Below, in pieces: positions 1,301 through 18,130 of a DNA stretch of 36,209 nt. The position numbers were made by a program, and so were the translations under genes. Position 1 is the first letter of the stretch, and every line of letters starts with the position of its first letter. The notes under the pieces are model-generated. The model did not search any database. It worked only from the letters and a program-made list of their open reading frames with translations, and was not told the origin of the DNA. Source of the DNA: Promethearchaeota archaeon (GTDB lineage: Archaea > Asgardarchaeota > Lokiarchaeia > Sigyniarchaeales > SOKP01); the NCBI GenBank assembly GCA_048938895.1, contig JBHLLU010000039.1, positions 1 to 36,209 on the forward strand. The letters are read 5' to 3'.

Positions 1301-3004
1301 TTATATGAAAGAGACCGATTTAAATTCAAGTTTAAATGAATTAAAATAATAGTTTCTTAAATCCGACGCATAAACATCTGCTCTTACTGGTGATAATTCC
1401 CAAATTTGTGGATACAATTCTTCAATTAACCGTTTTTGAATTTTATAATACAATCGTTCTCTAGCAGTTGGATTAGTTTTTCTAATAGCTTCCTCCATCC
1501 ATTGTTGAACTAACGTATCATTAAATTGCCCGAAATTTGAATGCCCATCGGCTTTACTTGAAAAGAATGGATTAATAAAATTGATAGGATCGTTAAAGTC
1601 CCCCATCCATCCATACCATGCAATTGTAAGCATGTCTTTGTTATAACCATATAGTTCAAAGCCACACCAATAATATTCTGCTAAGCTCATTTCATTATAC
1701 TCGATTTTTACTCCAATTTGCTTAAGATCTTCAATAAATTGATATGTGTGATTTAATCCCCAATCAAGCACAAAGTCATAGTTATATGTTGCGAGAGGCG
1801 TTAAGCCTTTTGCGACCATTTCCCATTCATTGTAAGCACTAATATTATCGTTTACAGTTAAATTTGCAGTTCCAGGCCAACCTGTGTCTTTTAAAACTTG
1901 CCTCGCTATTGAAATATTATAATAAGGTACTTTAATTCCTGTTATATTATGATATAAAACAACTTCTGGGATAGGAGATTTTGACCTAACTACTTTACCC
2001 AAATTCTCATAAGGCTTAAAAAGAGCAGAATAATTAAGAGCATAGGAGATAGCCTTTCTCATGGTAGCATTTATTAGTTTATTATTTATTTCGAACGACG
2101 TTACAAAAGGAAGAAGTCCTTCCTGTACAATAAATGAAGAATTATCTCTAAATTCATTGAGGATTGTCTCGTTAAACAAAGGCCATCTAAAAATATCAAT
2201 ATCTCCCGACAATAATGCTTCGATTTGATTAGGTATATTATCAATTTGGTAGAAAATTAATTTATCGATATCTGGTTTACCACCCCAATAGTATGGATTG
2301 GCAGATAATGACAAATTAACTTCATACTCATAATTATTATAAATAAAAGGACCAGTTCCCACCAGTTTTCCCGTATAAACATTAATAAATTCATCTGAAG
2401 GAGTAGCAGCAGGAGATAATATGTGCCCACGAGAAGCCATCAAATTTCTAAGCGGAACGTAAGGAGCATTCAACACAAACTTCACAGTATAGTCATCGAT
2501 AATTTGAGTTTCATTTATGATAGGTCTACCATCTGGAAAGAGCCAACGTTCAGGATATGTCAGATTATCAATTAATCTATATATTCTATCAAAATTCCAT
2601 TTGACTGCTGCAGCATTAAAAGGTGTGCCATCGTGGAATTTAACTTTCTTCCTAAGAACGCAAGTTAATTCTGTAGCATTATCATTCCATTCATGATGTG
2701 TTGCCAAATTATAAATTATTTCTGAATTATTAGTAGTTACATCAATAGTAAATAGTCCTTCAGCAACTTGGTCGATGACAAAAATATCTACCATTCCCAT
2801 AGTACTGTATGGATCGATGCTTGCTGGACAACCTGCTAAACCCACTTTAAGTGTAAACTCCTTTTCATCTTCTTCATTTTTTATATACCAAACAATACCA
2901 CCGATGATACCTGCTAATGCAAAAACAATTATTATTATTCCAACGAAAATTGGCCTATATTCAGTAAAAATCCGCTTCTTTCTATGAGCTTTGTTCTCGT
3001 TTAT
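1301..3004 (-). CDS. ABC transporter substrate-binding protein, family 5 (DppA/OppA-like), N-terminally membrane-anchored
   Basis: Motifs LRKKVKFHDGTPFNAAAVKWNFDR, GTGPF, MRKAISYALN and GWMGDFNDP. The frame stays open upstream of the GTG at 2845 through a TM helix (IFVGIIIIVFALAGIIGGIVWYI) to an ATA at 3004 preceded by GGGAG. The start is inferred. Confidence 0.9.
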   Translation of the reverse strand: MNENKAHRKKRIFTEYRPIFVGIIIIVFALAGIIGGIVWYIKNEEDEKEFTLKVGLAGCPASIDPYSTMGMVDIFVIDQVAEGLFTIDVTTNNSEIIYNLATHHEWNDNATELTCVLRKKVKFHDGTPFNAAAVKWNFDRIYRLIDNLTYPERWLFPDGRPIINETQIIDDYTVKFVLNAPYVPLRNLMASRGHILSPAATPSDEFINVYTGKLVGTGPFIYNNYEYEVNLSLSANPYYWGGKPDIDKLIFYQIDNIPNQIEALLSGDIDIFRWPLFNETILNEFRDNSSFIVQEGLLPFVTSFEINNKLINATMRKAISYALNYSALFKPYENLGKVVRSKSPIPEVVLYHNITGIKVPYYNISIARQVLKDTGWPGTANLTVNDNISAYNEWEMVAKGLTPLATYNYDFVLDWGLNHTYQFIEDLKQIGVKIEYNEMSLAEYYWCGFELYGYNKDMLTIAWYGWMGDFNDPINFINPFFSSKADGHSNFGQFNDTLVQQWMEEAIRKTNPTARERLYYKIQKRLIEELYPQIWELSPVRADVYASDLRNYYFNSFKLEFKSVSFI

Positions 3005-3387
3005 AATTCTCCCTATTTAGATTTTTTTTGATGATTTAGTAATTATTATCAAAATTATATTAGATTTCACAAATTTGTAATAAATTATTTTCATTCATAC
3101 TTAAAGGTTACTATGATCAAAACTTTAGGCCCAAATCCGCAAAATAATTATTTTTAGTTCTCTATTTCTAATTTTACATATAGGTCAATGTGAAGATTTC
3201 AAACCTAATGCACCTTATTGGTTCTGGGGGTGGTTTTCTTTTATTTTCTTTTCCTTTTACAGGGTGCTAGTAAGATTTATTTTATAATTCTTAGAATGCG
3301 GATTTCCCACATAGAAGGATAGATAGTAATTATGTTTCTATATTTTTAAAATTGAGACTAGAAGAAATAAAGCCCAAAGGATGTGTA

Positions 3388-3400
3388 AAGGTTTAAATTA
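3388..3400 (+). promoter_or_regulatory. Putative archaeal BRE/TATA element for the cysteine hydrolase gene
   Basis: Purine run followed by TTTAAATT (aaggtttaaatta) about 65 nt upstream of the ATG at 3464. Confidence 0.4.
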
Positions 3401-3463
3401 GTGAGACCATATTTAGATTATATCCAATATTAACAAACTTGTCAAATAATATGATGTGATTTT

Positions 3464-4195
3464 ATGGAGGATAAGATTAATAGTTTTTATAAATTCCATC
3501 AAAGGCTAATAAATGAAATACTACCGAAGAAAACAGCTTTAATTGTGGTTGACATGCAGAAATATCAAGTGCAGAAGGATTATGCTGCATTTAAGGCAAT
3601 GAATAATATTACCCCTGGAATTTTTGATTATTTTGCAGAAGAAGTGGAAAAAAAAGTTATTCCAAATCTACGAAAAATGATTGATTTTTGTCACGAAGCT
3701 GAAATTCCAGTAATATATACAAAATTTTCGAGTTTCATGCCCGATGGAAGTGATCTTACAAGGAGTACTAAATTTTTAAACGATTTTTGTAAAAATCTTG
3801 TAGGGGAAGTAGCATTTCCTTACATAGAGCACCATAGTTCAGATATAATCGATGAGTTAAGACCTGAAGATGGCGATTTTGTTATTCAGAAAAACACGAG
3901 CGGAACTTTTATTTCTACTAGACTTGACAGTTTCTTAAGAAACATGGAGATCGAAACGGTCTTGATAACAGGAGTAGTAACTAATTTTTGTGTATATGCA
4001 ACAGCACGAGAAGCAGCTGATTATGGCTTTCAAGTTGTTATTGTGGAAGACTGTTGCGCAGCGTGGAACTCTGAGATTCATGAAGCTACTTTGAAGTCAT
4101 TTGGATTACTTACAGGTTTCATACTAACACATGAGAAGGTTATCAAAAAGATATCTAAAGTAGTGAGATCATTGAAGACAGAAATTCCATCTTAA
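3464..4195 (+). CDS. Cysteine hydrolase, isochorismatase family
   Basis: D-K-C triad motifs ALIVVDMQ, IQKNTSGTF and GVVTNFCVYATAREA. Confidence 0.92.
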   Translation: MEDKINSFYKFHQRLINEILPKKTALIVVDMQKYQVQKDYAAFKAMNNITPGIFDYFAEEVEKKVIPNLRKMIDFCHEAEIPVIYTKFSSFMPDGSDLTRSTKFLNDFCKNLVGEVAFPYIEHHSSDIIDELRPEDGDFVIQKNTSGTFISTRLDSFLRNMEIETVLITGVVTNFCVYATAREAADYGFQVVIVEDCCAAWNSEIHEATLKSFGLLTGFILTHEKVIKKISKVVRSLKTEIPS

Positions 4196-4353
4196 TTTCC
4201 TTTGGTTTTATTTTTAAGCCATCTGATGGAATTGGCAATTGCATAATAAATTAACCATCGTCCTGAAATAGCTCTCGCACGACTCCATCTGATTTTTAAT
4301 TGTTGACTAGTTAATGAGGAGCTAGTGGTGGATAGAGATAAGAGATGATACAT
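4192..4353 (-). CDS. Possible small cationic peptide (53 aa), below the ORF-track size cutoff
   Basis: ATG at 4353 reads MYHLLSLSTTSSSLTSQQLKIRWSRARAISGRWLIYYAIANSIRWLKNKTKGN*. A TATTTAAA element lies about 38 nt upstream. No recognisable homology. Confidence 0.25.
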   Translation of the reverse strand: MYHLLSLSTTSSSLTSQQLKIRWSRARAISGRWLIYYAIANSIRWLKNKTKGN

Positions 4354-4477
4354 ACACACAATTAAAATTGATCTCTAGCAATATAGAGATTTTAAATATA
4401 ATATGAATCAAAACTTTTTATTTTTAAAATAATTTTGACAAAATACTGTCTGTAATTAGAAACGAACAAAGTGAAAT

Positions 4478-5410
4478 ATTATTCCATTTATTCGAAAAAC
4501 CTGTAAAATAAATGAAAATACATGGATGTTTGATTGTTTAATTTACAATATGGTAGAGCAAATGGCTCTTTTTATTATTGAAAATAATAGAAAAACTGCT
4601 TTGATTGACACTGGAACAAGTAGTGAAGTTGATAGTTTATTAAATTATCTTCAAACTATCGGTATCGATCACCTCGATTATATTTTTTCCTCCCATGTTC
4701 ACTTAGATCACACTGGAGGTGTGAAAAGATTATCCACTCGATTTCCTGAAGCCGAAATCGTGGTTTCAAAATTATATCAGAAACTACCCGAAACAGAGCT
4801 TGCTAAAAAGAACTCAGAATTAGTAGAGTATCACGAATATTTGTTACAAAACTTAAAAAATAGGGTGATATATGTAAGTGAAGGGGATATTATTAGTTTG
4901 GATGATTTAAAATTAGAAATTTATGCTGCTCCAGGTCATACTCCCGAACATATTGCTATTTTGGATAGGAAAAATATGAATTTATTCCCGGGGGATTCAA
5001 TAGGGGGACACCATTTAGGTTCAGGATTTTCTCGACCGACTGCATATCCTCCTTATTTTAAATATGAATCTTATTCTAAAACTGTTAATAAGTTATCCCA
5101 AATTGAAAATCTAAAATCTATAAGTTTAGCACATTTTGGTGTGGCTACAGGTTCTGATGTTCAAGAAGTATTTAAAATATCAGAGGATGTTTTCAAAGCT
5201 TACAAGGATACAGTAGTTGAAAGTTATCAGAAGTATAATGGTGATCTCAATTTAATAATAACTGCTCTTCTAGATAAATTTGGTCGTTCTCCAAACGAAA
5301 TTAAGCATAATCGACCCGATTCCCTAATTTTCAGGACATTAGGTGGAATATCGATTGGGTTTATAAACGAGTTGGGTCTAAATTCTAAATTTAAAGTAGA
5401 TTTAAAATAA
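4478..5410 (+). CDS. Metallo-beta-lactamase fold hydrolase
   Basis: Motifs ALIDTG, SHVHLDHTGG, PGHTPEH, LFPGD and LAHFG. The first ATG is at 4526, but the frame extends to ATT at 4478/4481 (IIPFIRKTCKINENTW) behind AGTGA. The start is uncertain. Confidence 0.9.
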   Translation: MIPFIRKTCKINENTWMFDCLIYNMVEQMALFIIENNRKTALIDTGTSSEVDSLLNYLQTIGIDHLDYIFSSHVHLDHTGGVKRLSTRFPEAEIVVSKLYQKLPETELAKKNSELVEYHEYLLQNLKNRVIYVSEGDIISLDDLKLEIYAAPGHTPEHIAILDRKNMNLFPGDSIGGHHLGSGFSRPTAYPPYFKYESYSKTVNKLSQIENLKSISLAHFGVATGSDVQEVFKISEDVFKAYKDTVVESYQKYNGDLNLIITALLDKFGRSPNEIKHNRPDSLIFRTLGGISIGFINELGLNSKFKVDLK

Positions 5411-5508
5411 TCAAAAGAACTCACATGTAAACTCGGTGCCTGTTTCAAAGAAAACATATATAAAAAAACTTGGATATGAAAATCGATTGTGATTTGGCTA
5501 AATCCAAA

Positions 5509-6603
5509 TCATTTTGAACTAGTTGTGAGGGGAGGAATAAATATATCCCTGAGCCCAGTTCTTTCTAATATCCTTGCCTTCTCAGGGCAATGATGAGCAC
5601 AGAGGCCGCAACCTATACATTTATTAAGATTTGTTGAGGAAAGAGCATCTACTAATTCAATTGCTTCTATCGGGCATTTTTCTATGCAGGTTCCACATCC
5701 TGTGCATTTATCTTCATCGACTTTTGCGATATAGTAAGATAAAGTATGAAAAGGGAGAATTCCTCGCTTGTATAGTTGGAAAAACTGACAACAACAATCA
5801 CAACAGTTGCAAAAAGCATCTTCTTCTTGGTTAGGATTTTTCATATGAATAGCTTTGTGGATAAGTCCATCATCCTCAGCTTCTTTCAAGATTTCCAAGG
5901 CTTCTGCTTTTGATATTAATGTACTAAAACTGTGATCTATAAGAAATTGAGCGTATCTTCCAAATTGAAAGCAACATAGTTTCGGACTTTCTAATTTGCA
6001 TTGTTGTTGTAGGTTATTTTTCCAATTTCTACAATAACAATAATTAACACCTATAATTTCATTTCTTTCTATAATACTCTTAGCGTTTTCGTAAGGTAAT
6101 ACTACATCTCGATACATTTCGACTTCTTTATTAACAGGAACAACTCTATCTATTGGCTTACGAGTCTTAAACTGTTCTACAATTACATTATAATTACTTT
6201 GAGTCAAATCACTCAACTCATCTAGTAATTTATCTATCAATTTGGCTATTTCCTTCTGCTTTTTGCCTTTTTCGCCTTTCATAAAAGGATATTCAATAAG
6301 CCCTGGAAGGATGGAGATTAAAGAGTAAACCATGCTTCCAGTAGTCCTACTCAGAATTCCCATTATTATTCCATTATCCATTAATTCATTGAGCATATTT
6401 TTTAGTTCTTGATCGTCTAACTCAGTTTTAGATTTAATCTGGTTCATATTTAATGACCGTTTCCTAAAGAGTAACAGAAATTTTGCTTGATCTTCATTTA
6501 CTAAAGTCTGAATTAGCTTTATTAAGGTATCACTTATGGGGATTGGTGCACCTCCTGCATTAACAAAATTTCTAGTTACTTTTTGCCATAATTTCTCCGA
6601 AAT
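5509..6603 (-). CDS. 4Fe-4S dicluster-binding protein with N-terminal helical/wHTH-like region and Cys-rich middle domain
   Basis: Motifs CYCR, CNCCDCCC, CTGCGTCIEKCP and CIGCGLCAHHCP. The frame is open 52 codons upstream of the ATG at 6447 to an ATT at 6603 (SEKLWQKVTRNFVNAGGAPIPISDTLIKLIQTLVNEDQAKFLL). Confidence 0.88.
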   Translation of the reverse strand: MSEKLWQKVTRNFVNAGGAPIPISDTLIKLIQTLVNEDQAKFLLLFRKRSLNMNQIKSKTELDDQELKNMLNELMDNGIIMGILSRTTGSMVYSLISILPGLIEYPFMKGEKGKKQKEIAKLIDKLLDELSDLTQSNYNVIVEQFKTRKPIDRVVPVNKEVEMYRDVVLPYENAKSIIERNEIIGVNYCYCRNWKNNLQQQCKLESPKLCCFQFGRYAQFLIDHSFSTLISKAEALEILKEAEDDGLIHKAIHMKNPNQEEDAFCNCCDCCCQFFQLYKRGILPFHTLSYYIAKVDEDKCTGCGTCIEKCPIEAIELVDALSSTNLNKCIGCGLCAHHCPEKARILERTGLRDIFIPPLTTSSK

Positions 6604-6790
6604 TTTTAATCATCTTTTGTTACTAATTGATTAATCATAATTCAAATAAGACATATATGATAATATACTTAATTGTCGATTTGTTAAAGGGATTAGAGGA
6701 GATTCGTAAATTTATCCAGAGTATTCGCTACTAAAGGGACTGAAAACCAAAAATTATACCTTAAAGAAATTTAAGTTACTCCCTTCAGTG

Positions 6791-7810
6791 TCAGTTTTTC
6801 AATAATTTTGTTAAGATTGGAAATAATTCATCCCTAGTATTTTTTACATTAATTAGCTCTTTCATATCATATTTACCGAAAATTTCCTGACCCAATCTGA
6901 TGTATTCCACTTGTGATGGATTAATGTCAATCAATCCACAGATTAAAGCGTCTAGAGAAACTAAATGGTTACTAAACGCAGCAATGCCTAAATTTTCAAT
7001 TATATCATAGTTCCCCCATGGTACTCGTATGCTTCCTTTTGGATCAGAAACGGTTACAGAATAAATTCCCTCACATAATCCGTAAACATCAAAAAAGGTG
7101 GCATAAATTTTATTTATATCGATAATATTTTGGCTTAAAAGACTGTCTGCTGGTCCGTGCCACCAAGATCTTAATGGATCGGGAATAAGACCAAACATAT
7201 TTTTCAATGTTAAGCTAGGATACGTACTTTTAATTCCTTTTATCTTTCCAAAACTTATAAGGATTTGATCTTTATATTTCAGCAATTTAGATGGAAAAAA
7301 TTGATATAAATTATCTTTGACTACCGGTGGATATTTCCTTTCTACTTCTTTTTTTATTATTTTAGATTCTGCTGAACGATCTTGCCAGATTTCCTCTGTT
7401 ACATTAATATATTCGACTCCAAATTCAGAAAAAAGATCTTTAAACCCAAATTGCGACAAAAACCATTCGTCTTGTTTTCTTAATTGATCCCATCTCCCTT
7501 TTTCCTTTATCCACTTCCAATCTGGATATTCCATAATCCATTTCCAGTCCACTTCATGATCCTCAACGATAAACTTTAATTTACCATCCTGTTTTTCTAA
7601 AGTATAGGATTCTATAATCATTATCTTACCATTTAAAGCCTCAAATAATAATCTCAAAGTTTTTGCTTCCGTAAAATTACCTGGATGAGGACTAAACCAG
7701 TTTGGTTTTATAATAAAAGTATCTGACTCAAAAAATTTAGGGGGGAAGAGTTCTTTTAAATCAGATGCATCTCTTATCTTATTTAGATTAATGGCTCCTA
7801 TATTTTTCAT
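6791..7810 (-). CDS. DUF362-like protein
   Basis: Motifs IIKPNW, SLTLKNMFGLIP and LVSLDA match the DUF362 pattern. Confidence 0.75.
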   Translation of the reverse strand: MKNIGAINLNKIRDASDLKELFPPKFFESDTFIIKPNWFSPHPGNFTEAKTLRLLFEALNGKIMIIESYTLEKQDGKLKFIVEDHEVDWKWIMEYPDWKWIKEKGRWDQLRKQDEWFLSQFGFKDLFSEFGVEYINVTEEIWQDRSAESKIIKKEVERKYPPVVKDNLYQFFPSKLLKYKDQILISFGKIKGIKSTYPSLTLKNMFGLIPDPLRSWWHGPADSLLSQNIIDINKIYATFFDVYGLCEGIYSVTVSDPKGSIRVPWGNYDIIENLGIAAFSNHLVSLDALICGLIDINPSQVEYIRLGQEIFGKYDMKELINVKNTRDELFPILTKLLKN

Positions 7811-7923
7811 AATATTGGCATTTTGGTAGCTTTGTTTTACATATTAGCTAATTATTTGTAAGTAATAATTATCTTCCACATTATAAATATTCTCAAATTC
7901 CTTTGTAAAGTCTTAATAAAATC

Positions 7924-8430
7924 TCATAATTCAGTAGCAAAATCCTTTAGCTCATATATATCATCAGGAAGATGATCAATTCCAGCGAATTCTTTTATAA
8001 CAATAGAAATTATTTTAGATTGTAATTCCGGCTTAAGATTAGGGAAAGTCATCTGATATTTTCCTCCAATACTCTCGCAATCATCTTCAATTATTATATC
8101 TGGTTTTGCTTTTTCAATTTGTACATCCCAATCTTCTTCCTTTTGTCGATAAAAGATAGTGCCTTCAGGGAAATTATATTTTTTTAAGACAATTTCGTCT
8201 TTTTTCACATTTTCAAGAATTAGATGAGAACTTAGATATGAAATCTGGGCTCCTTGATTTTGCCATGAAGTTAGTTTCTTAACAACGTTTCCAATTGGAA
8301 TATACGAAGCAAAATCAGAAATAGATTCATCAGTATCCTCAATAACTTGCTGTACTATTTGCAATCTTGAAAGTCCTAAGGCACTCCTATGCATGATGCA
8401 GGTTCCATGGAGAAATACTAATATTCTCAT
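7924..8430 (-). CDS. Hypothetical protein with a degenerate HAD-like fold
   Basis: N-terminal ILVFLHGT sits at the DxDGT position, followed by YLSS and IIIEDD resembling HAD motifs II and IV. The nucleophile Asp is absent. Confidence 0.5.
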   Translation of the reverse strand: MRILVFLHGTCIMHRSALGLSRLQIVQQVIEDTDESISDFASYIPIGNVVKKLTSWQNQGAQISYLSSHLILENVKKDEIVLKKYNFPEGTIFYRQKEEDWDVQIEKAKPDIIIEDDCESIGGKYQMTFPNLKPELQSKIISIVIKEFAGIDHLPDDIYELKDFATEL

Positions 8431-8588
8431 TCTTCCAATCTACATTCCCAACATTATTTTTTTTTTGGGTTTAGAGAAAGTTATTATCAAAATAAAATGA
8501 GTCATTAATAAATATGCTCGATTTTTGGGAAAAATTAATAGAATATAGATTAAGCTTTTATTAACAATAAATAACTAATTTAAGCATC

Positions 8589-8942
8589 ATGGAGGGTAAA
8601 TATATTAGTCTCATAACATATAAAAGGAATGGAGATCCCAGAGCCACTCCGCTATGGTTCGTAGAAGAGAATGAAAAAATCTACTTCGTAACTTTACAAG
8701 GAAGGTATAAAGTTAAACGAGTAAAAAGTAATCCAAATGTCAAGATTGCATCTTCTAGCATGCGAGGTAAACCTAAAGAAGAATATATTGAGGGAATTGC
8801 TCGCATTCTCTCAGATGACGAGTCTAAACCAATCATTGCATTGTTTAAGAAAAAATATCGGATGTTTAAAATAATGTTTAAAGAAGGTCGGGAAGGGGAA
8901 AAGAAATTAATCTTCATTGAAATTGCATTAAAGGAGAATTAA
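8589..8942 (+). CDS. PPOX-class F420-dependent oxidoreductase
   Basis: Motifs YISLITYKRNGDPRATPLWF and KVKRVKSNPNV. Confidence 0.88.
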   Translation: MEGKYISLITYKRNGDPRATPLWFVEENEKIYFVTLQGRYKVKRVKSNPNVKIASSSMRGKPKEEYIEGIARILSDDESKPIIALFKKKYRMFKIMFKEGREGEKKLIFIEIALKEN

Positions 8943-8972
8943 TACTACAATTTGCCTATTGATCGTGAATCT

Positions 8973-9566
8973 TTAATCCTGGTAACTATAACGTTGTTGC
9001 TTCCAAGGATCGGCTTTATTTGAGTAACCTGCTCTTTCCCAATAGCCTAATCTATCTTCCTTTAGGAAAGTAATCTTGATTATCCATTTTGCACTCTTAT
9101 AAAAATATAAATCGGGAATGATAGCTCTCACAGGACCTCCATGCTTATCATTAATCGGTTCTCCTTCATAAGTCAACGCTAAAATTGCATTATCTCTCTT
9201 TAATCTATCTATAGACACAGTTGTAGTAAATTCACTATCAGCACATAAAAATTCAATGAATCTTGCCGATATTTTTGGTTTTGCTAGATTAAGAAGCTTC
9301 TTAAAAGAAATGCCACCCCATTTTGTATCAAATTTACTCCATGAAGTTACACAGTGTATATCTTCCAATATTTCGATATCTTTTAATTTTTGTAATTCTT
9401 TTAGAGTTAAAATTATCGGTTGCTCAATTTCTCCATTGATTTCTAATTTATAAGTTCCTCTATCTAAATGGGCGACTGCTCCATTTTGAAGGACGGGAAA
9501 ACGTGTAGTTATATGCTGACCAGGAGGTAACCGTATATTTTTATCTGGAATTGTATTGTTTTTCAT
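8973..9566 (-). CDS. Sulfite oxidase-like molybdopterin-dependent oxidoreductase (YuiH/MsrP-like)
   Basis: Motifs RLPPGQ, DIHCVTSWS, HGGPVR, YFYKSAKW and GYWERAGY. Confidence 0.92.
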   Translation of the reverse strand: MKNNTIPDKNIRLPPGQHITTRFPVLQNGAVAHLDRGTYKLEINGEIEQPIILTLKELQKLKDIEILEDIHCVTSWSKFDTKWGGISFKKLLNLAKPKISARFIEFLCADSEFTTTVSIDRLKRDNAILALTYEGEPINDKHGGPVRAIIPDLYFYKSAKWIIKITFLKEDRLGYWERAGYSNKADPWKQQRYSYQD

Positions 9567-9746: not shown

Positions 9747-10487
9747 TTATTTATTTAATAGGGTACTCATACTTTTCACAATACTTTCAATTTCGTTATC
9801 AAAAGTTTGAACTTGGTTGACAAAAATGTTGTTTACCTCAAGTAATTGTGATATAACATATTCAGGAGATTTAATAATTTGTTTAGCTAGCTTCATAGCT
9901 TCATTTAAGACTTGACCTTTATCGACCAATTTATTAATTATATTTAATCGATACGCTTCTTCTGCGGATATGAAAGTTTCTCTACTAGCAGTATTTAAGG
10001 TAATTTCAAGTGCTTTACCTCGACCTACTAGCATTAGATAAGGAAAAAAAAGCGGACATGCTCCAAATCTGATTTCTGGGTGCCCAAACAGAGTACCTTT
10101 GGAGGCAACTCGGAGGTGGCAGATAACTGCAAGATCAAATCCCCCTGCTAAAGCATAACCATTTATTGCGGCTATTAATAATTTCGGAAATTCAAAAACT
10201 GTCTGATGAAATAGATGATTAGAGGCAATAAAATGTTGATAATTACCAGTTCCCTGAATGACCGCTTGTACTTCATCTCTATCAAATCCAGCAGTAAAAA
10301 TTTCTTCTCCTCCATATATTATAACTACTTTAATTCTTTTTTCTTCTTTCAGTAATTCTAGTGCTTCGATTATTTCAGTTCTCATTACGTCGTTCATTGC
10401 ATTTTTTTTGTCGGGACGATTAAGGTGAAGAATTCCTATATTCCCTTTTCTCTTAACATTTAAAAACTGAAATTCTTTATGTATCAA
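9747..10487 (-). CDS. Enoyl-CoA hydratase/isomerase family protein
   Basis: Motifs LNRPDKKNAM, FTAGFD, IAAINGYALAGG and FGHPEIRFG. The TTG start at 10487 is preferred because the ORF-track GTG is part of the SD (GAGGTGA). Confidence 0.92.
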   Translation of the reverse strand: MIHKEFQFLNVKRKGNIGILHLNRPDKKNAMNDVMRTEIIEALELLKEEKRIKVVIIYGGEEIFTAGFDRDEVQAVIQGTGNYQHFIASNHLFHQTVFEFPKLLIAAINGYALAGGFDLAVICHLRVASKGTLFGHPEIRFGACPLFFPYLMLVGRGKALEITLNTASRETFISAEEAYRLNIINKLVDKGQVLNEAMKLAKQIIKSPEYVISQLLEVNNIFVNQVQTFDNEIESIVKSMSTLLNK

Positions 10488-10659
10488 TTTATTCACCTCA
10501 CTTTTTTATTTTTATTTAGGTAGAAATTAGATAAACACATTTAAATCTCTCTTCATTTTCCATTTTTGTTTTTTAAAAGCTTAATTTTATACAAAAAAGT
10601 AATCCCGTTGACCATTAAAATAAATTATGTGATACTTTCTTACTATTATTACTATTATC

Positions 10660-11316
10660 ATGCAATTCAAAAAAGTCAGCATTTCCATAGGTATCGTAGT
10701 AGTAGTTATTATTTTCGCAATAATCGTCTTAGGATTGATGCAACCAAATAATAGTGAAGATCCATTCGACAATGAAGGCAGGTATGACTCAACCATCCTC
10801 AATAACATGGGTGTGATATATAATGACTCATCGGATATTGCTCACTGGAATAATGGTTATAGTGAGAGTGATAATTGTCCATGGGGCTATGTACATAATG
10901 GCCTTGATTACATGTACTCCAATAATTCTATAGTAATTGCTGCCGCTCCTGGATTAGTAGAGGATATTGAAGTTGGATATCTACCAGCTCCAAATGATAA
11001 CATCTATTTTATTGTAGTTGCGATCAGATTTAATGAATCAATAACAATCAATTACAGTTTTGAAGGGAATTCTGTAGATATCGCAGTGAGAGAGCAACAA
11101 GAATCTATGATAGATGTAGAAATAGGAGATTGGGTAGCCAAGGGGGATAAGATAGGCAGATTCCTTAGACCTGTTGAGTATGATCACATACACTTTGGCG
11201 TGTATCGCAATGATATCGCCATCTGCCCAAGACTTGTCATGGGTGAGGATGATTACAACGGGATCATGAGCTTGGTACATTCTTTTCACCCCACATGGGA
11301 ACTATGTTATCCTTGA
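10660..11316 (+). CDS. Membrane-anchored M23/LytM-like metallopeptidase
   Basis: N-terminal TM helix, HNGLD (HxxxD), VIAAAPGLV, VEIGDWVAKGDKIG and HIHF (HxH). Confidence 0.75.
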   Translation: MQFKKVSISIGIVVVVIIFAIIVLGLMQPNNSEDPFDNEGRYDSTILNNMGVIYNDSSDIAHWNNGYSESDNCPWGYVHNGLDYMYSNNSIVIAAAPGLVEDIEVGYLPAPNDNIYFIVVAIRFNESITINYSFEGNSVDIAVREQQESMIDVEIGDWVAKGDKIGRFLRPVEYDHIHFGVYRNDIAICPRLVMGEDDYNGIMSLVHSFHPTWELCYP

Positions 11317-11547
11317 AAAAAAATGAAAAATTCTATCTTGGACATTTCACAGTAGGATTATCATTAATTGGAGTCAGAGTGATACTTCTTATGATTGTAT
11401 TTTTATGTAGTTTACCACGTGGTTGTTTGAAGAGGATTCGGTGGTAAATTGGATATATTTATAGGTGTATTCTTTTGATTTGGGTTCGATTTATCACTCA
11501 TTTGTCTTTTCCTCCAAAGGTTTTTAAGAGACCTTTTAAATAAAATT

Positions 11548-12396
11548 TTATTCTGAAGTTAAAGCTTTACTAACATCCCATAATCTTTTTTGAATGCTAG
11601 TATTATAAGAATTTTTTGATGATTTTACTTGCTTGCATTTGATCCAATATTTTCCGCTAATATTTTCTACTTCTGGGGAGGATGCTAAAAATATAGAAGT
11701 TTTAGCTCCTTCTTCAGCGCTAACTGTAAACTGTTTAAAAAGTTTCAAAAATCTTCTTGTTCTTTCAGAGAATTCTCGTCCAAAATTTGTTCGTGCAGCT
11801 CCAGGATGAACTACATTAACTGTCACGCCCGAATCTTCCAATCTTCTAGCTAGTTCATAAGTAAACAAAATATTGGCTAATTTCGTATTGTTGTATGCTT
11901 TAAATCTTCCATATTTTTGTTCTAACATCAAATCGTTGAAATCCAATTTTCCACGTTTATGAGATCCTGATGATACGTTAATTATACGTGCTGGAGCACT
12001 TGATTGAAGCATTTCTAACATTAGATTTGTTAGTAAAAAATGCCCTAAATGATTTGTAGCAAAAGTTGTCTCATGACCCATACTATTTGTTTCTCTCTTT
12101 TTTTTCATTATACCTGCGTTATTGATGAGAATATGTAATTTATCATGCGTTGATTTATAATTTTGGACAAATAATCTTATTGAATCATAATCTTGTAAAT
12201 CAGCAATCATTAATTCAATGGATTGGTTTCCAGTGTTATCTTTGATCTCCTTTAAAGCATTGGTCCCCTTCTGTTCATTGCGGCATAACATTACTATTGA
12301 CGCCCCCATCTTTGCAAGACCAATGGCGGTTGCTTTTCCAATACCAGAGTTTGCTCCGCTAATTATACAAGTTCTATTAGATAAGTCAGTCTTCAT
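11548..12396 (-). CDS. Short-chain dehydrogenase/reductase (retinol dehydrogenase-like)
   Basis: Motifs SGANSGIG, LINNAG, TNHLGHFLLT, YNNTK (YxxxK) and VHPG. Confidence 0.95.
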   Translation of the reverse strand: MKTDLSNRTCIISGANSGIGKATAIGLAKMGASIVMLCRNEQKGTNALKEIKDNTGNQSIELMIADLQDYDSIRLFVQNYKSTHDKLHILINNAGIMKKKRETNSMGHETTFATNHLGHFLLTNLMLEMLQSSAPARIINVSSGSHKRGKLDFNDLMLEQKYGRFKAYNNTKLANILFTYELARRLEDSGVTVNVVHPGAARTNFGREFSERTRRFLKLFKQFTVSAEEGAKTSIFLASSPEVENISGKYWIKCKQVKSSKNSYNTSIQKRLWDVSKALTSE

Positions 12397-12493
12397 TATA
12401 ATTAGATAAAATTATGGTTATCATTTTGAATTATCGATTTCGTTCATATTGAATAGAGATTTGTATACCAAAAATAAAATGTCTCTTGGTACT

Positions 12494-12657
12494 AGGTAGA
12501 TTCGAGACACCTAATTAGAATGGAAAGGTAAATTCAGAGTCTGATTTCAATAAAAAATCTGTTGAAAAGACAAGAAAATCTTAAATCCAATAACAATATG
12601 AATGGAAGGGTAAATTTGAAAATGTTAAGTAGATCCAATATTTTTTAAGGTAAACTC
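12494..12657 (+). repeat. Cluster of GGTAAATTC-like motifs, including copies 2 and 3 of the dispersed 16-mer
   Basis: AGGTAGATTC at 12494, ATGGAAAGGTAAATTC at 12520, ATGGAAGGGTAAATTT at 12602 and AAGGTAAACTC at 12647. Confidence 0.6.
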
Positions 12658-12708
12658 TCTTCTTTTCTTTCAAAATAAAAAATTTTACTAAATATACTAC
12701 ATTACAAA

Positions 12709-14223
12709 TTGAATGTAAAAGGAGTACAAAAACCAAGGCAGATTTATGAGAGATATAGAAAGGGTGAACTTGATACAAATTCTATAGTTGAGATTTTCAA
12801 ATCTATAATTGAAGAAGATACCGTTTTATTAAAACGGATACGCGCTATTGAATTTTTAGGCGAAATTAAACCTTATAGCAATAAATTATATGGAGTTCTC
12901 GAATATTGTATAATTTCAGATGTAAACCCTGAAATAAGATTAGCTGCGATCAAAGCAATAATTAACAACTATTTAGAACTCGGATTCGAATCAGTAAGAT
13001 GGGTTATTTCCCATGATAATTCTAATTTAGTTATGATGAATATCTTCGAATTACTAAAGCATAAGACTGATGTAACTTCAAAAGTATTACAAGAAGAAAT
13101 ACTTCAGAGATTTTCTAATATTTTTCAAGTAGTACCTCTCGAGGCAAAATTTTTTATTGATTTGTTTAATGCCTTAAATCAAATCGAAGAGAATTTAGAT
13201 CTTAATATCAATTATACACACAAATTCTCTTTCAAGAATGCTTCACTGCATCATTGTAATGCTGGATTCTATGCGCCTATAATAATCAGTGTCAGAAATA
13301 AACATGCCTATGCTTTAATGTTGGGCGGATTTAAACTAAAAGAATTACCCAAATCTATTTCCTTATTAAAAAAATTGAGATTTCTTACTCTATACAATAC
13401 AGATTTACATCATTTACCTAAGTCTATTCAAAATTTGAAAAACTTATCCTGTTTAAAATTAGCAAGAAACAACTTTAAAAAATTACCAAAGTCTATTTCT
13501 AAATTGGGAAAACTTAGATCTTTAATTTTGAATGAAGAATCCTTGAAGTATATACCAAATCGGATTGGGAAACTTCATAGATTATCTTTTCTTCAGGATT
13601 TATCTGGTAAAATAAGAAAAATTCCAAATTCATTAATAAACATATCAAACCAGAAATTTCTTAAAAGATATATAGATTTAGGAGTTGACAAAACTGAGGC
13701 TCCAATACTGGGTTTATTAGAGCTTCTTAGTGATATCCCCTTAGAAAAAATTGAGTTCTTTGAGGATGAGTTTGATTCAGAAAAATTTGATCCAATCAAT
13801 TCTATGCATTGTTTTAAATTAAATGAGAAAGGTAATATAATTAGACTTTACTTTTATTCTTACCATTATCCATTGGTTTGGATATTACCTAAACAAATAG
13901 ATTTATTACAACATATTAAATGGATATGTCTCTACAATAATACCATTCCACAAATACCTAAAAAAATAGGGAAACTTAAATCACTTGAAATAATGGATTT
14001 ATCAAAAAATTCTATAAAGAAAATACCACTAGCTATTAAAAAGTTAAAGAATTTACAAAATTTGGATCTTTCTATAAATCAAATTAAAAAAATACCGAGA
14101 TTTTTGAAAAATAATCCCATACTAAAGAAGATCGATTTGCTCAGTAATCCTGTATGTAAGAGTAGAAAATTAAATTCCAATTCTCCTGCTAAATTTTCTT
14201 CCTACAAATCCAGCTATAGTTAA
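12709..14223 (+). CDS. Leucine-rich repeat protein with N-terminal HEAT-like repeats
   Basis: HEAT-like segments KRIRAIEFLG and EIRLAAIKAI. Two blocks of about 23-aa LRRs (LKELPKSISLLKKLRFLTL; IPKKIGKLKSLEIMDLSKNSI). TTG start. Confidence 0.9.
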   Translation: MNVKGVQKPRQIYERYRKGELDTNSIVEIFKSIIEEDTVLLKRIRAIEFLGEIKPYSNKLYGVLEYCIISDVNPEIRLAAIKAIINNYLELGFESVRWVISHDNSNLVMMNIFELLKHKTDVTSKVLQEEILQRFSNIFQVVPLEAKFFIDLFNALNQIEENLDLNINYTHKFSFKNASLHHCNAGFYAPIIISVRNKHAYALMLGGFKLKELPKSISLLKKLRFLTLYNTDLHHLPKSIQNLKNLSCLKLARNNFKKLPKSISKLGKLRSLILNEESLKYIPNRIGKLHRLSFLQDLSGKIRKIPNSLINISNQKFLKRYIDLGVDKTEAPILGLLELLSDIPLEKIEFFEDEFDSEKFDPINSMHCFKLNEKGNIIRLYFYSYHYPLVWILPKQIDLLQHIKWICLYNNTIPQIPKKIGKLKSLEIMDLSKNSIKKIPLAIKKLKNLQNLDLSINQIKKIPRFLKNNPILKKIDLLSNPVCKSRKLNSNSPAKFSSYKSSYS

Positions 14224-14299
14224 TGCGTGTTGGGTATGCAATAATGCGCTGGATGAAACCTAAATCTAAAGTGTAATTTTCGTCTGATTGTATTGAAAA

Positions 14300-14863
14300 T
14301 TAACCTGTAGTGCGTAAAAAGAATTTTTTTTCAGCTTTATATGGAGGATAAGAAAATAATTCAACGTGGGATATCCTTGCTATGAAAGGTTTTGTGATCT
14401 GTAAATCAAGATAATTTTGGGAAATTTCCACTGCTTTGGAGATGTCTTGGGTTGGAAGGTCTAGTAGTAGGGTTATATGTGGACTCCACATACTATCTGT
14501 TATTTGATCCAAAACAATCCCTTGGTTTTCTAATGTCTCTAAACAAAGCTTTCTTAAAGATTGAAGATTGCTTGAATATTTAGGATTAAGATAAAAAACT
14601 TGGGTTGCAGGAAAGGTAGTTAAACCAGTAAATTCTAGTGAGAAGGAGTAAAATGTAGAAATTGCAGATTCCAAGGCATCATAATATTGTTGTTTTCTTA
14701 ATTCTTTATGTTCAAATAATGTAATGTGGGGTGGCACTAGCACATATGTATGACCATGCAGATCAGGGGAATTATTTAAAATTTTCTGTAATTCTTTCAA
14801 CTTTTTAGCCGATTTTTCATCAAAACAAACAATGATTCCAGTCCAAAAATCCATGATTCTCAA
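14300..14863 (-). CDS. 2H phosphoesterase (2'-5' RNA ligase family)
   Basis: Two HxT motifs, PPHITL and SPHITL. Confidence 0.85.
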   Translation of the reverse strand: MRIMDFWTGIIVCFDEKSAKKLKELQKILNNSPDLHGHTYVLVPPHITLFEHKELRKQQYYDALESAISTFYSFSLEFTGLTTFPATQVFYLNPKYSSNLQSLRKLCLETLENQGIVLDQITDSMWSPHITLLLDLPTQDISKAVEISQNYLDLQITKPFIARISHVELFSYPPYKAEKKFFLRTTG

Positions 14864-14960
14864 ATTAAATAATCTAATTTAGTTTTAAAATTCATTGGTT
14901 GAAAAGTGGTTGTACTTCCATAGTATTGTGGTGAATATGTAAAAAGGTAACTTTATTAAA

Positions 14961-15815
14961 ATGAGAATCAAAATGATAAATATGAAAATGGAGACTAAAA
15001 TATTATTATCTGGTCTTGAATTTCCAGAGGGACCACGATGGCGAAACGGGAAGTTGTTCTTTTCAGACTTTATTGGAAGAAAAGTTATTACCGTTGATGA
15101 AACAGGTAAATCGAAAATTATAGTAGAAATGCAGGATTCTCCATCAGGATTGGGTTTTTTAAATGATGGTAGGATGCTTATAGTATCAATGCAAAGACGT
15201 TGCCTTATGCGTCTAGATCCAGAAGGATTGAAAATTCATGCGGATTTAAGCAAATTTACAGATTATAACTGCAATGATTCCGTAACTGATACTCATGGAC
15301 GAACTTATATAGGAAATTGGGGCATCAAATCCCTTGAAACCCCCGCTGAGCCCACATGTCTCATCTTGGTAACTAAAGATGGAGATGCAAGAATTATTGC
15401 TGAAAATCTTTTATTTCCCAATGGATGTATTGTAACTCCCAGTTGCAAGACTTTTATTGTAGCAGAAACTTTTGGAAATAAGTTGACTGCTTTTGATATT
15501 GAAAATTCAGGAAATCTAATAAATCGAAGAATTTGGGCTGAAATGAAAGATTTTACACCAGATGGTATATGTCTTGATGAAGAAGGTGCAATCTGGGTCG
15601 CAAATCCATCTAAAGCGGAAGTCTTACGTATTTTGGAGGGAGGGAAAATCACGTCTACTATTAAAGTAAAAGATACAAATGTTTATGCCTGCACTCTGGG
15701 TGGAGAGGATGGAAGAACTCTTTTCCTTTGCACCACTCAATATTTAGAAGGTAAAAGATCAAGCGGGAGAATTGAATTTTTAAAGGTCGAAGTCCCGGGT
15801 GTTGAGATTCCATAA
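14961..15815 (+). CDS. SMP-30/gluconolactonase/LRE family protein
   Basis: Motifs FPEGPRW, CND, FPNG and PDGICLDEEGAIWVA. The start may be one of the downstream ATGs. Confidence 0.93.
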   Translation: MRIKMINMKMETKILLSGLEFPEGPRWRNGKLFFSDFIGRKVITVDETGKSKIIVEMQDSPSGLGFLNDGRMLIVSMQRRCLMRLDPEGLKIHADLSKFTDYNCNDSVTDTHGRTYIGNWGIKSLETPAEPTCLILVTKDGDARIIAENLLFPNGCIVTPSCKTFIVAETFGNKLTAFDIENSGNLINRRIWAEMKDFTPDGICLDEEGAIWVANPSKAEVLRILEGGKITSTIKVKDTNVYACTLGGEDGRTLFLCTTQYLEGKRSSGRIEFLKVEVPGVEIP

Positions 15816-15986
15816 TTTTTTTCTTTTAATGATTATGAAAGGAAGTGAATTTTATTTCACTTAGTTGAAATCAAAACACTTATGTCTTTAAATACTATGT
15901 ATGTTTATTGTAAATTAGGTTTAAAAATGAAACCTAATATAATTAATACATCTGGTGGAAAAAATAAATTAAATTGAAGGTGAAAA

Positions 15987-16907
15987 ATGAACATGGTAAG
16001 TAAGTTTGCGAAAATGTTTATGAAAAAATTAGGAGAACAAAAGGATTTTATCTTCGATATGAAGAATGTAGAGGAATTTAGAAAAGAATTTGAAAAAATG
16101 TTTATAAAGATGAAGCCTGCTAAAGGTATTACCCTTGAAGAAATTCAAATAGGAAATATTCCTGCAGAAAAATATTCGTTAAATTCACAAGACTCAAAAT
16201 TAAGAGTTATGTTATATTTACACGGAGGGGGTTATTTTAGTGGATCTTATATATCTCACCGAAGGTTTGTATCGATATTGTGTAAAAAGTTAAATCTTCA
16301 TGCATACAGCATAAATTACCGGCTTGCTCCAGAAGATCCGTATCCCGCTGGTTTAGATGACGCTTTTTTTGTGTATAAATGGTTGTTGGAAGAGAAATCC
16401 ATTCCCGCAGAAAAGATAATGATTATGGGTGATTCTGCTGGAGGAGGATTGACTCTGGCCTTACTTTATCGAATTGGAATACATAATTTACCTCAACCAA
16501 AAGCAGCTATATGTTTGTCACCCTGGACTGACCTGACCTTAACTAGTGAAACTATGAAGACAAAACTAGATGAAGAGGTTTTTTTTAATCTAGAAAACAT
16601 GGAAACTAGTGCTAGAGCATATCTACAAACGGAGTCTCCAGAAAATCCGGAAATCTCACCTATTTTTGCTGATTTCAATGGATTTCCCCCAATATTTCTA
16701 CAAGTGGGGACAAGAGAAATATTACTTAATGATTCTATAATTATTGCAGAAAAAATGAAAAAACAGGGAGTCTCCGTAACTGTTGATCCGTGGGAAGGAA
16801 TGTTCCACGCGTTTCTAATTTTTATAGCGATTCCAATACTGGGAAAACTGACACCTGAATTTAGAAAAGCCATGAAAAATGTGAAGACATTCGTAGATAA
16901 TCTTTGA
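15987..16907 (+). CDS. Alpha/beta hydrolase, hormone-sensitive lipase-like esterase
   Basis: Motifs HGGG, YRLAPE, GDSAGG, LSPWTD and GMFH. SD GGTGA lies 3 nt upstream. Confidence 0.95.
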   Translation: MNMVSKFAKMFMKKLGEQKDFIFDMKNVEEFRKEFEKMFIKMKPAKGITLEEIQIGNIPAEKYSLNSQDSKLRVMLYLHGGGYFSGSYISHRRFVSILCKKLNLHAYSINYRLAPEDPYPAGLDDAFFVYKWLLEEKSIPAEKIMIMGDSAGGGLTLALLYRIGIHNLPQPKAAICLSPWTDLTLTSETMKTKLDEEVFFNLENMETSARAYLQTESPENPEISPIFADFNGFPPIFLQVGTREILLNDSIIIAEKMKKQGVSVTVDPWEGMFHAFLIFIAIPILGKLTPEFRKAMKNVKTFVDNL

Positions 16908-17009
16908 AAAGATGAATTTGATCAATTTAAGGTATAATCGTCAAGAAAATTTTTTTAATATTATGAATTATGAGAGATATTTGGTATCATATAAACAAGT
17001 TGAGACTTT

Positions 17010-17474
17010 ATGATAGAATTGTTGAAAAAATTGAGCATTGTATGGAAAGAGATGGATGAACAGATACCTCTAATGCGCGAAGCGGTAAGGAAGGACCTTA
17101 AAAAGGATTTCGAAACTTTTGATCATGATGATGCTCATATACAAAGAGAGTTACTTTTTCTCAACGATGCATTAAAATTTTTGCAGAAAAAATGGACAAT
17201 GGATCTTATATATATCATCAGAATTAAAGAAAGACCATTTTTCAATGATATTCGTCGAGCTTTACCAAATATAAATTCACGTACGTTAACAACACGCTTG
17301 AAGGAGTTTGAAGAAAACGATATTGTAATTCGAACAGTAAGCAATACACAACCCATTCGAGTCAGTTATGAACTAACAGATTTAGGAAAAGGTGTGTATG
17401 AGTTATTAATTCCATTACTAATTTTTTTTGCTCGTCAAAAATATCAGAAAGAGAGTCTGGATAATTCTGTTTAA
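17010..17474 (+). CDS. HxlR-family winged-helix transcriptional regulator
   Basis: KKWT...FNDIRRALPNINSRTLTTRLKEFE...PIRVSYELTDLG. Confidence 0.9.
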   Translation: MIELLKKLSIVWKEMDEQIPLMREAVRKDLKKDFETFDHDDAHIQRELLFLNDALKFLQKKWTMDLIYIIRIKERPFFNDIRRALPNINSRTLTTRLKEFEENDIVIRTVSNTQPIRVSYELTDLGKGVYELLIPLLIFFARQKYQKESLDNSV

Positions 17475-17617
17475 ACCACATGAATTTCATTCTCTTTTTT
17501 AATTTGCTCTAAAATTCATTTCTAAGGACAAATTAGAGAAATTAAAAATAAGAAAAGAATAATAAACAAATCGTCATTTATAAGTTATATTCTATCTAAT
17601 TGTAAGGTGTAATTAAT

Positions 17618-18130
17618 CTGTGGATAAAAAGAAATTATGAAAAATGCAGTGGATGCAGAAGATGTGAGATCGCGTGTTCTCTACATCACGAAGGGAAAAT
17701 TTGGCCAGAAGCTTCAAGGGTAAGAGTTTTTATGTTTGTCCCAGGAGTTGAAATACCACATCTCTGCTTTCAATGTGATGATCACCCATGTGTTGAGGAA
17801 TGTCCCGAGGAAGCCTTATTGATAGATGTTCAAACAGGAGCTATAATTACTGACACATCGAAATGTACCGCATGTGGAGTATGCATTAATGCGTGTCCTG
17901 GAAGGGTACCACATCTCCATCCTCAAGATGATCATATAGTAATTTGTGATTTCTGCGGTGGAGAACCAAAATGTACGGCTGTTTGTCAAGAAGGGAAGTG
18001 GGATGCTTTGATTCTCTTAGAGAATCAAGATATTGAAAAAAATCCCGTAAAGATCCCTAAGGAACTAGCATATGAAACTGCGAGGAAGATATTAGGTGAA
18101 AAAATAACTGAAGAGGTGTATGAATGGTGA
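17618..18130 (+). CDS. 4Fe-4S polyferredoxin (DmsB/AorA-like) partner of the AOR
   Basis: Cys groups CSGCRRCEIAC (upstream of the ORF-track ATG at 17732), CFQCDDHPCVEECP, CTACGVCINACP and CDFCGGEPKCTAVC. The start is inferred at CTG 17618 (or ATT 17612) behind GGTGT. The gene overlaps the AOR start. Confidence 0.9.
   Translation: MWIKRNYEKCSGCRRCEIACSLHHEGKIWPEASRVRVFMFVPGVEIPHLCFQCDDHPCVEECPEEALLIDVQTGAIITDTSKCTACGVCINACPGRVPHLHPQDDHIVICDFCGGEPKCTAVCQEGKWDALILLENQDIEKNPVKIPKELAYETARKILGEKITEEVYEW

Follow-up and report, generated by a model that had tools for sequence, protein, structure and literature searches.

Candidate ATT and ATA start codons behind Shine-Dalgarno motifs in a genus of Lokiarchaeia, with aIF1 among the genes concerned

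In model organisms, ATT, ATA and CTG starts are limited to a handful of genes, and it is established for bacteria, mitochondria and eukaryotes that AUU and AUA starts are read by the initiator through near-cognate pairing. Both codons are routine initiators in AT-rich genomes with the mitochondrial and Mollicutes codes (NCBI tables 2, 4 and 5), and eukaryotes also initiate at near-cognate codons such as CUG. At the AUU start of bacterial infC, IF3 autoregulates its own synthesis, a loop described in the accessible text of PMC4705826, and the available portions of PMC4705826 and PMC6237735 describe the autoregulation of eukaryotic eIF1 via an AUG in poor context. For the Asgard archaea, a “rare ATT start codon” was proposed for the tubulin AtubA of Kariarchaeaceae (Sci Adv 2026; PMC13394414, accessible text), and Shine-Dalgarno (SD) sequences are stated to be rare in Lokiarchaea in the accessible parts of PMC7531240 and PMC12993045. 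The subject here is a stretch of 36,209 nucleotides, hereafter the window, from a Promethearchaeota archaeon of the class Lokiarchaeia (assembly GCA_048938895.1, contig JBHLLU010000039.1), four genes of which appear to begin at ATA, ATT or CTG, together with the genes for uS10, L7Ae and the initiation factor aIF1 elsewhere in the same genome.

The aIF1 gene resembles infC in that the discriminating factor's own gene would start at AUU behind an SD motif, with the AUU conserved across species. Unlike in infC, the factor is a homologue of eIF1/SUI1 and not IF3, the autoregulation is a proposal, and related lineages have ATA, CTG, GTG, TTG or ATG. With eIF1 the case shares a homologous factor and the logic of a weak start site in the message for the fidelity factor itself, but the weak element here would be an AUU codon on an SD-led mRNA, not a Kozak context, and there is no scanning. 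The codons are identical to the rare ATT, ATA and CTG starts of NCBI table 11, with the initiator tRNA presumably acting on a near-cognate codon; unlike in model organisms, ATA (23) and ATT (20) are each commoner than GTG (7) at the strong-SD starts, and uS10, L7Ae and aIF1 are included. Unlike with the mitochondrial and Mollicutes codes, no changed code was seen, ATA and ATT being ordinary isoleucine codons inside genes. AtubA is a parallel in that a deposited Asgard protein was too short and an upstream ATT restored the fold and put the ribosome-binding site at a plausible distance; unlike the present genus, it is a single exceptional gene from another Asgard family, and the accessible text of PMC13394414 makes no genome-wide or comparative claim for it. 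The literature searched, supplements excluded, held no report of frequent ATT or ATA starts, a single-gene remark on an Asgard ATT being the only one, and nothing on a non-AUG start of aIF1.

The window is contig C59 of a 4.65-Mb genome bin (G000; 174 contigs, 31 % G+C), and its gene content is that of ordinary metabolic genes. Genomes compared with it include G006 and G087 from the same genus, G032 from another family of the order and G065 from another family of the phylum. Throughout, ATG, GTG and TTG are called canonical starts, and an extension is the in-frame stretch from the upstream stop to the first canonical start. Taken as a whole, the comparisons make it likely that translation in this genus truly begins at AUU and AUA on SD-led mRNAs, and more rarely at AUC and CUG.

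Candidate starts of four genes in the window

A preliminary description of the window had picked out four otherwise intact genes whose extensions look protein-like and lack any canonical codon, and had placed their starts at ATA, ATT or CTG codons behind SD-like motifs. The extensions measure 57, 17, 54 and 42 codons in genes 1 to 4, the coordinates, motifs and spacings at all four candidate starts proved accurate (Table 1), and the canonical starts that had been set beside them for comparison, at 15987, 10487, 33877 and 26072, are as had been noted. Homologues align into all four extensions, which bears out their protein-like character. Two further extensions, at 26132 and 29695 in the second half of the window, look non-coding and were dropped as candidates.

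Gene 3, for an Fe-S protein, has its first canonical start at ATG 6447. Its paralogues begin M-S/T-D/E-K-L/F-W, which against the window's K-I-S-E-K-L-W puts ATT 6603 on the paralogue ATG. The orthologue set (the window, L013 and L047-L054, with L015 identical to L054) spans 58-100 % identity; ATT stands at this position in nine of the ten and ATG in the tenth (L051), and the Ser and Glu codons beside it show synonymous variation. An out-of-frame ATG that overlaps the TGA of gene 3 is TTG or GTG in other orthologues and absent in L048; since it is not conserved, it is read as part of the SD motif. These alignments suggest that gene 3 starts at ATT 6603.

Gene 2, for a protein of the metallo-beta-lactamase fold, has two neighbouring ATT codons, 4478 at AGTGA+3 and 4481 at AGTGA+6, and a first canonical start at ATG 4526. 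Its paralogues align from residue 2-6 and begin M/L-V-F-I-N-K-E-G-K-F-N-E-N-T-W, and their ATG or TTG Met1 falls on ATT 4481. The orthologue searches for genes 1 and 2 covered 54 genomes of the genus and returned four orthologues of gene 2, at 88-89 % identity. ATT 4481 is invariant in all five sequences, at a distance of 6 nt from (A/G)GTGA, and from this SD motif onward the sequences are conserved at the nucleotide level; this comparison makes ATT 4481, at that distance from the motif, the likely start.

The extension of gene 1, for a solute-binding protein, runs from TAA 3019-3017 to GTG 2845 and encodes an N-terminal basic stretch and a membrane anchor. All ten homologues compared (48-56 % identity) begin with ATG, a basic stretch and a hydrophobic anchor, and ATA 3004 was aligned onto the ATG of the G008 homologue, which points to ATA 3004 (or ATT 3007) as the probable start.

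Gene 4, for a polyferredoxin, overlaps the start of an aldehyde:ferredoxin oxidoreductase (AOR) gene (18124). Its upstream stop is TAA 17603-17605 and its first canonical start ATG 17732; the first CxxCxxCxxxC Fe-S motif is encoded in the extension between them, where CTG 17618 lies at GGTG+8 (GGTG 17606-17609). Where the orthologues have ATG-GAA the window has TTG-TAA, and the orthologue-type SD is lost. From this alignment, TTG-TAA is clearly the remnant of the ancestral ATG-GAA start, the ATG having been lost with a stop at codon 2. ATG in all close orthologues combined with relaxed selection had been named in the preliminary description as the pattern that would speak for decay. Only its first half was found: the gene 4 orthologues all have ATG, yet dN/dS between gene 4 and the four orthologues is 0.16-0.25 (0.12-0.20 among the orthologues; codon alignment), all cysteines are kept, and the gene is under purifying selection. 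A plausible new start is CTG 17618, in front of which an AAGGTG has newly arisen. The homologous codon is CTG, TTG or GTG in the orthologues; it does not match the orthologue Met1, and the earlier proposal of CTG as a start is the weakest of the four.

For the bases, whose confirmation had also been proposed earlier, some support comes from a different sample (run X2), in which contigs span 2298-3569 (4 differing letters), 3641-4534 (9) and 6490-6882 (1), all gap-free and covering three of the four sites. Among the differences listed none falls on a start site, and among the pieces listed none lies over 17618; many related strains are present in this comparison, and it is taken as partial support for the bases only.

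Table 1. Positions of the genes and start regions discussed; coordinates refer to the window unless a contig of G000 is named (ORF, open reading frame).
Feature	Location	Strand	Details
Gene 1, family-5 solute-binding protein	1301-3016	minus	stop-to-stop ORF of 571 codons; SBP_bac_5, E 1.1e-58
Gene 1, candidate ribosome-binding site and starts	3002-3013	minus	GGGAGA 3013-3008; ATT 3007-3005; ATA 3004-3002
Gene 2, metallo-beta-lactamase-fold protein	4475-5410	plus	stop-to-stop ORF of 311 codons
Gene 2, start region	4470-4483	plus	AGTGA 4470-4474 (holds in-frame TGA 4472-4474); ATT 4478-4480; ATT 4481-4483
Gene 3, Fe-S (2x4Fe-4S) protein	5509-6609	minus	stop-to-stop ORF of 366 codons
Gene 3, start region	6601-6614	minus	GATGA 6614-6610 (in-frame TGA 6612-6610); 6-nt spacer; ATT 6603-6601
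Gene 4, polyferredoxin subunit	17606-18130	plus	stop-to-stop ORF of 174 codons
Gene 4, start region	17600-17620	plus	TTG-TAA 17600-17605; AAGGTG 17604-17609; ATT 17612; CTG 17618-17620
uS10	C4:50517-50825 (G000)		ATA at homologous Met1
L7Ae	C65:682-1059 (G000)		ATA at homologous Met1
Succinyl-CoA synthetase beta (ATP-grasp_2)	C55:18722-19849 (G000)		first canonical codon at 160
aIF1 (SUI1), locus L058	C39:32845-33171 (G000), outside the window	minus	PF01253, 62.6 bits

Start codon use in the genome and its relatives

A genome-wide tabulation of the codon at the homologous Met1, which the preliminary description had called for, gave a clear excess. Among 1261 ORFs of G000 with an extension of at least 8 codons, 131 have a paralogue aligned over at least 8 residues inside it, and for 38 of these a paralogue with a confident start places Met1 inside the extension. 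The mapped codon is ATT in 11, ATA in 6 and ATC in 1, or 18 of 38, against a background of 10.3 % isoleucine codons in coding sequence (p 7e-9); at neighbouring offsets, ATT, ATA and ATC make up 5-30 %.

The SD motifs lead in the same direction. The consensus in G000 is GGTGA, with its A at -7 and an optimum of GGTGA + 6-7 nt, and the 16S rRNA 3' end GAUCACCUCC in relatives, taken from G032 and a G023 fragment, fits this consensus; 16S rRNA was not found in G000 or G006. The motifs of window genes 2 and 3, at +6, each differ from the consensus by one mismatch. In 89 ORFs the GGTGA motif itself supplies the upstream stop, its TGA, and codon 3 is canonical in 32, ATT, ATA or ATC in 30 and CTG in 2. 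An early canonical start is missing from 31 of them; at precisely 6 nt from the motif, 24 of the 31 have ATT, ATA or ATC and 2 have CTG, compared with 179 of 1142 behind TAA or TAG stops (binomial p 4e-14) and 1-9 of 31 at flanking codons. When spacings were scanned, the peak of ATT, ATA and ATC coincided with the canonical peak, and the control motif AAAAA gave a flat profile. A looser test of SD motif and spacing gave a weak in-frame excess of these codons (4.1-4.6 % versus about 2-3 %), was confounded by nearby canonical starts and was set aside.

A refined scan was de-duplicated, and non-canonical sites were removed when a canonical codon followed within 6 codons. At proper spacing behind a strong SD it counted ATG 98, TTG 32, ATA 23, ATT 20, GTG 7, ATC 7, CTG 3 and other codons 38. 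ATT, ATA and ATC account for 50 of the 88 non-canonical sites at proper spacing and for 56 of 317 at control spacings, the other 261 control sites having other codons (odds ratio 6.1, p 2e-12). From these counts it follows that about 42 ATT, ATA and ATC starts stand above background, roughly a quarter of the strong-SD starts.

The lengths of the extensions provide an estimate of the total. The 3795 non-shadow ORFs of G000 that have an upstream stop and at least 100 codons show a heavy-tailed distribution of distances to their first canonical start, and long extensions score as coding. A coding-potential model gave 86 extensions versus 37.5 at 8 bits or more and 211 versus 117.5 at 4 bits or more, a rough rate only, as the presence of upstream genes makes the off-frame null too high and the list includes selenocysteine genes and one gap-spanning ORF. 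The excess in extension length corresponds to roughly 100-200 genes with non-canonical starts (1-5 %), a figure that includes selenocysteine genes and possibly broken genes. Two HdrA-like ORFs (C33:120840-121400 and C115:12770-13324) lie directly behind an in-frame TGA, itself preceded by a Cys-rich stretch. A tRNA-Sec is encoded in the genome, and both ORFs are probably cases of selenocysteine read-through and not of start codon choice.

The replication scans drew on evenly spaced 800-kb samples per genome, which are small samples from kin genomes. In G006 they gave 23 canonical sites, 9 with ATT, ATA or ATC and 8 others, against 16/67 at control spacings (p 0.006). The excess was non-significant both in G032 (22 canonical, 2 with ATT, ATA or ATC and 9 others, against 3/40; p 0.27) and in G065 (36, 2 and 6, against 1/34; p 0.08), which is no demonstration that the trait is missing from these two genomes. 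By these sequence measures, non-canonical initiation appears strong within the genus, and the aIF1 ATT reaches three genera of the family. The idea that relaxed start choice is a property of the lineage is largely supported by the Met1 mapping, the SD spacing, G006, and the uS10, L7Ae and aIF1 genes treated below, but the rate suggested by four of about 31 genes in the window exceeds the genome average and overstates it.

Essential genes and aIF1

Pfam domains begin at residues 4-9 of ORFs of the ATT/ATA type (Ribosomal_S10, ATP-grasp_2, Maf, AFOR_N, Usp and NifU_N), and in the ORF of an ABC ATPase the Walker A lies upstream of any canonical start. In uS10, ATA is found in 20 of 20 loci of the genus and ATG in nine of ten loci of other genera; six of the 20 have no canonical codon before codon 27. 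L7Ae has ATA or ATT in five of five genus loci (ATA in G000, ATT in the four others) and ATG in G032. In a different genus, g5, uS10 (G030 and G034; L082/L084) has ATT at the homologous codon; eight codons upstream of it, GGTGTGA is followed immediately by an in-frame ATG. The aIF1 of g5 (G030, L157) has ATA, and this genus may represent a second origin of the trait.

Prokaryotic gene calling nearly always assumes ATG, GTG or TTG starts. The genes described here seem to begin at ATT or ATA, so standard callers would clip their N-termini. In the public collection, gene 3 is deposited as 312 aa (P0121) against about 364, with orthologues at 297-412 aa, and the G000 uS10 is given as 101 aa from the ATA codon, while about 20 near-identical clusters are given as 94 aa from an internal TTG. 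These mixed entries mean that the N-terminal mis-annotation predicted earlier is real but uneven. If about a quarter of the strong-SD starts of the genus are ATT or ATA, then Asgard proteomes would be systematically clipped or mis-started, including the eukaryote-like proteins invoked in eukaryogenesis, with effects on signal peptides, domain calls, structure prediction and expression constructs. The conserved AUA and AUU on uS10, L7Ae and aIF1 would also mean that near-cognate initiation carries essential, highly expressed functions in an archaeon.

The conserved ATT of aIF1, a factor whose role in start codon discrimination is described in the accessible text of PMC6237735, is the most interesting lead. 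The G000 protein matches solved archaeal aIF1 structures (4mo0/5jb3/5jbh, E 2e-25) and is alignable throughout, and its ORF has no ATG, GTG or TTG before codon 90 of 109. An invariant ATT stands before K-D-D-D-I-C-P-x-C and behind GGTTGTGA in 22 of 22 readable loci of the genus, or 23 of 23 with G087 (the G006 copy is masked and lies outside this count). The second isoleucine codon varies between ATT, ATA and ATC while the start ATT is invariant, and the first canonical codon wanders between codons 24 and 90 in the genus loci, and overall from codon 17 to none. ATT is also found in three g14 and two g12 genomes, making g1, g12 and g14 the ATT genera, and g13 has GTG; elsewhere in the order, two g5 genomes have ATA and five genomes have GTG or TTG. 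In a sample of 30 loci from the phylum, no canonical start precedes the zinc knuckle in six, of which four have ATA candidates behind AGGAGG+9 and two have CTG candidates behind AGGTG+7; the other 24 are canonical, mostly ATG. A further CTG candidate was seen in G092, among 20 additional loci; by genus, ATA candidates occur in g5, g21 and g28, and CTG candidates in g16 and in G092. G087 carries, beside its ATT-started copy, a second aIF1 paralogue (L168, G087:C2:79646-79861; 61 % identical) with GTG start candidates. A five-codon GTG...TAA mini-frame also lies at the aIF1 start, its TAA overlapping the ATT.

In the mechanism proposed here, the 16S tail would pair with a GGTGA-type motif and set the codon 6-7 nt downstream in the P site, where the ordinary initiator Met-tRNA (anticodon CAU) would accept the third-position mismatch at AUU or AUA, helped by the SD positioning. 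The initiation factors and initiator tRNA had been suggested earlier as places to look for fidelity substitutions. Compared with solved aIF1, the aIF1 of G000 shows no substitution interpretable as a fidelity change, and the initiator tRNA in G000 is normal-looking (anticodon CAU, A1:U72, GGG/CCC stem), but aIF1 itself would be ATT-started. As a factor that rejects non-AUG codons, aIF1 could limit its own synthesis, more aIF1 giving less initiation at its own AUU, in a negative feedback of the kind known from bacterial infC, and other AUU and AUA genes would respond to the aIF1 level too. It is a tentative and somewhat doubtful extension of this that dozens of AUU and AUA genes, uS10 and L7Ae included, form a translational regulon titrated by aIF1, with the ATT, ATA and CTG starts of aIF1 in at least six other genera of the phylum being convergent evolution of this circuit. 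The AUU of aIF1 would make it testable whether, in all three domains, translation of the start-codon fidelity factor depends on a start site kept weak on purpose.

Competing explanations and further observations

Several findings weigh against ATT, ATA and CTG as the starts of these genes. The spacing in gene 1 is 3-4 nt (GGGAGA+3 to ATA 3004), short of the genome optimum of 6-7 nt, and the gene is without an orthologue above 56 % identity in the 54 genomes searched. In gene 2, the G118 orthologue (L316) has an in-frame TGA in place of CGA at codon 7 of the extension and may be broken there, or may use a downstream start in that species; the orthologues in G128 and G117 have an in-frame ATG directly behind GGTGA, and ATG 4526 could be the source of a shorter protein. 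All four orthologues of gene 4 (80-85 % identity) start ATG-GAA behind GTGAGG, 6 codons upstream, and CTG starts are rare genome-wide, with 3 strong-SD sites. A TTG lies seven codons downstream in 14 of the 20 uS10 loci of the genus and four codons downstream in three orthologues of gene 3. The GGTGA+6 pattern was both noticed and first tested on G000, and the only independent replicate, G006, is a relative. No RNA run was found that contains the stretch, the start assignments rest on comparison of sequences, and the feedback loop is drawn by analogy only.

The most obvious alternative is that the start codons have simply been lost, and that the genes are young pseudogenes or make shortened proteins from a downstream ATG, GTG or TTG, the upstream frame being a relic. 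The loss of the ancestral ATG in gene 4, the TGA in the G118 copy of gene 2, the downstream TTG codons in some uS10 and gene 3 orthologues and the downstream starts taken by public annotations all fit this, but it is unlikely, as essential genes retain one and the same non-canonical codon in 20-23 genomes, while the downstream canonical codons shift position between orthologues, as they do in aIF1. Downstream starts would remove half of the S10 domain, the zinc knuckle of aIF1, the Walker A region of the ABC ATPase, the membrane anchor of gene 1 and the first Fe-S motif of gene 4. The ORFs of the four window genes are intact over 174-571 codons, the low dN/dS of gene 4 does not resemble that of a pseudogene, and an enrichment of ATT, ATA and ATC at the exact SD spacing is unexpected for relics. 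A start codon of the normal kind, placed in another frame or in a mini-ORF and followed by a +1 slip on an A-run behind an ATGA, TTGA or GTGA overlapping the stop or by termination-reinitiation into the gene frame, finds some encouragement in the out-of-frame NTG that overlaps the TGA and precedes an A-run in gene 3 and two orthologues, and in the GTG within GGTTGTGA, which opens the five-codon frame whose TAA overlaps the ATT-AAA of aIF1 in all copies of the genus. The NTG is, however, the G/T/A of the SD motif itself, with nothing SD-like upstream of it; the gene 3 orthologue L048 has neither the NTGA nor the A5 run and still has ATT; no slip site or closed mini-ORF is present in uS10 or in most GGTGA+6/7 cases; and the paralogue Met1 falls on the ATT or ATA codon itself, not upstream. 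The conserved upstream start and slip site of a programmed +1 frameshift are missing from L048 and from uS10, and this explanation is highly improbable.

Initiation at ATT and ATA by the ordinary initiator also has to be set against a different decoder, in which the codons would be true starts but served by a dedicated or elongator tRNA that gives the protein an N-terminal Ile, or altered at the RNA level. Nothing direct speaks for this, though tRNA detection is incomplete (17-24 found, many probably intron-bearing). A normal-looking CAU initiator is present, near-cognate pairing is the mechanism established elsewhere, and no second initiator-like tRNA was seen in a scan that was weak and incomplete (17 and 24 tRNAs found), which makes a special decoder very unlikely. 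Errors of sequencing or assembly that changed ATG to ATT or ATA, or added homopolymer indels, might be suspected from the A5 runs near three of the four starts and from the nature of the genome, a metagenome bin of 174 contigs; the identical codons in independently assembled genomes, the gap-free bridging of three sites by contigs of another sample and the intact long genes of the window (e.g., 1278 codons at 20155-23991) leave such errors a next to negligible probability. Real initiation at AUU and AUA is the reading that is kept here.

A few observations stand apart from the question of start codons. The tRNA scan, run in intron mode, also called a tRNA-Pyl, which is probably spurious. The window encodes a leucine-rich-repeat (LRR) protein (LRR_14, LRR_8) at 12679-14223, called from TTG 12709, of a type common in Asgard genomes. 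In four sediment and other metagenome runs, the summed contig depth over 11973-13106 and 15942-18200 is 10-50x that of the rest of the stretch, and loose contig ends are numerous at 12513-12556; the high-depth segments are probably conserved or repeated pieces common to many strains (the LRR gene, a hydrolase, HxlR and the AOR region).

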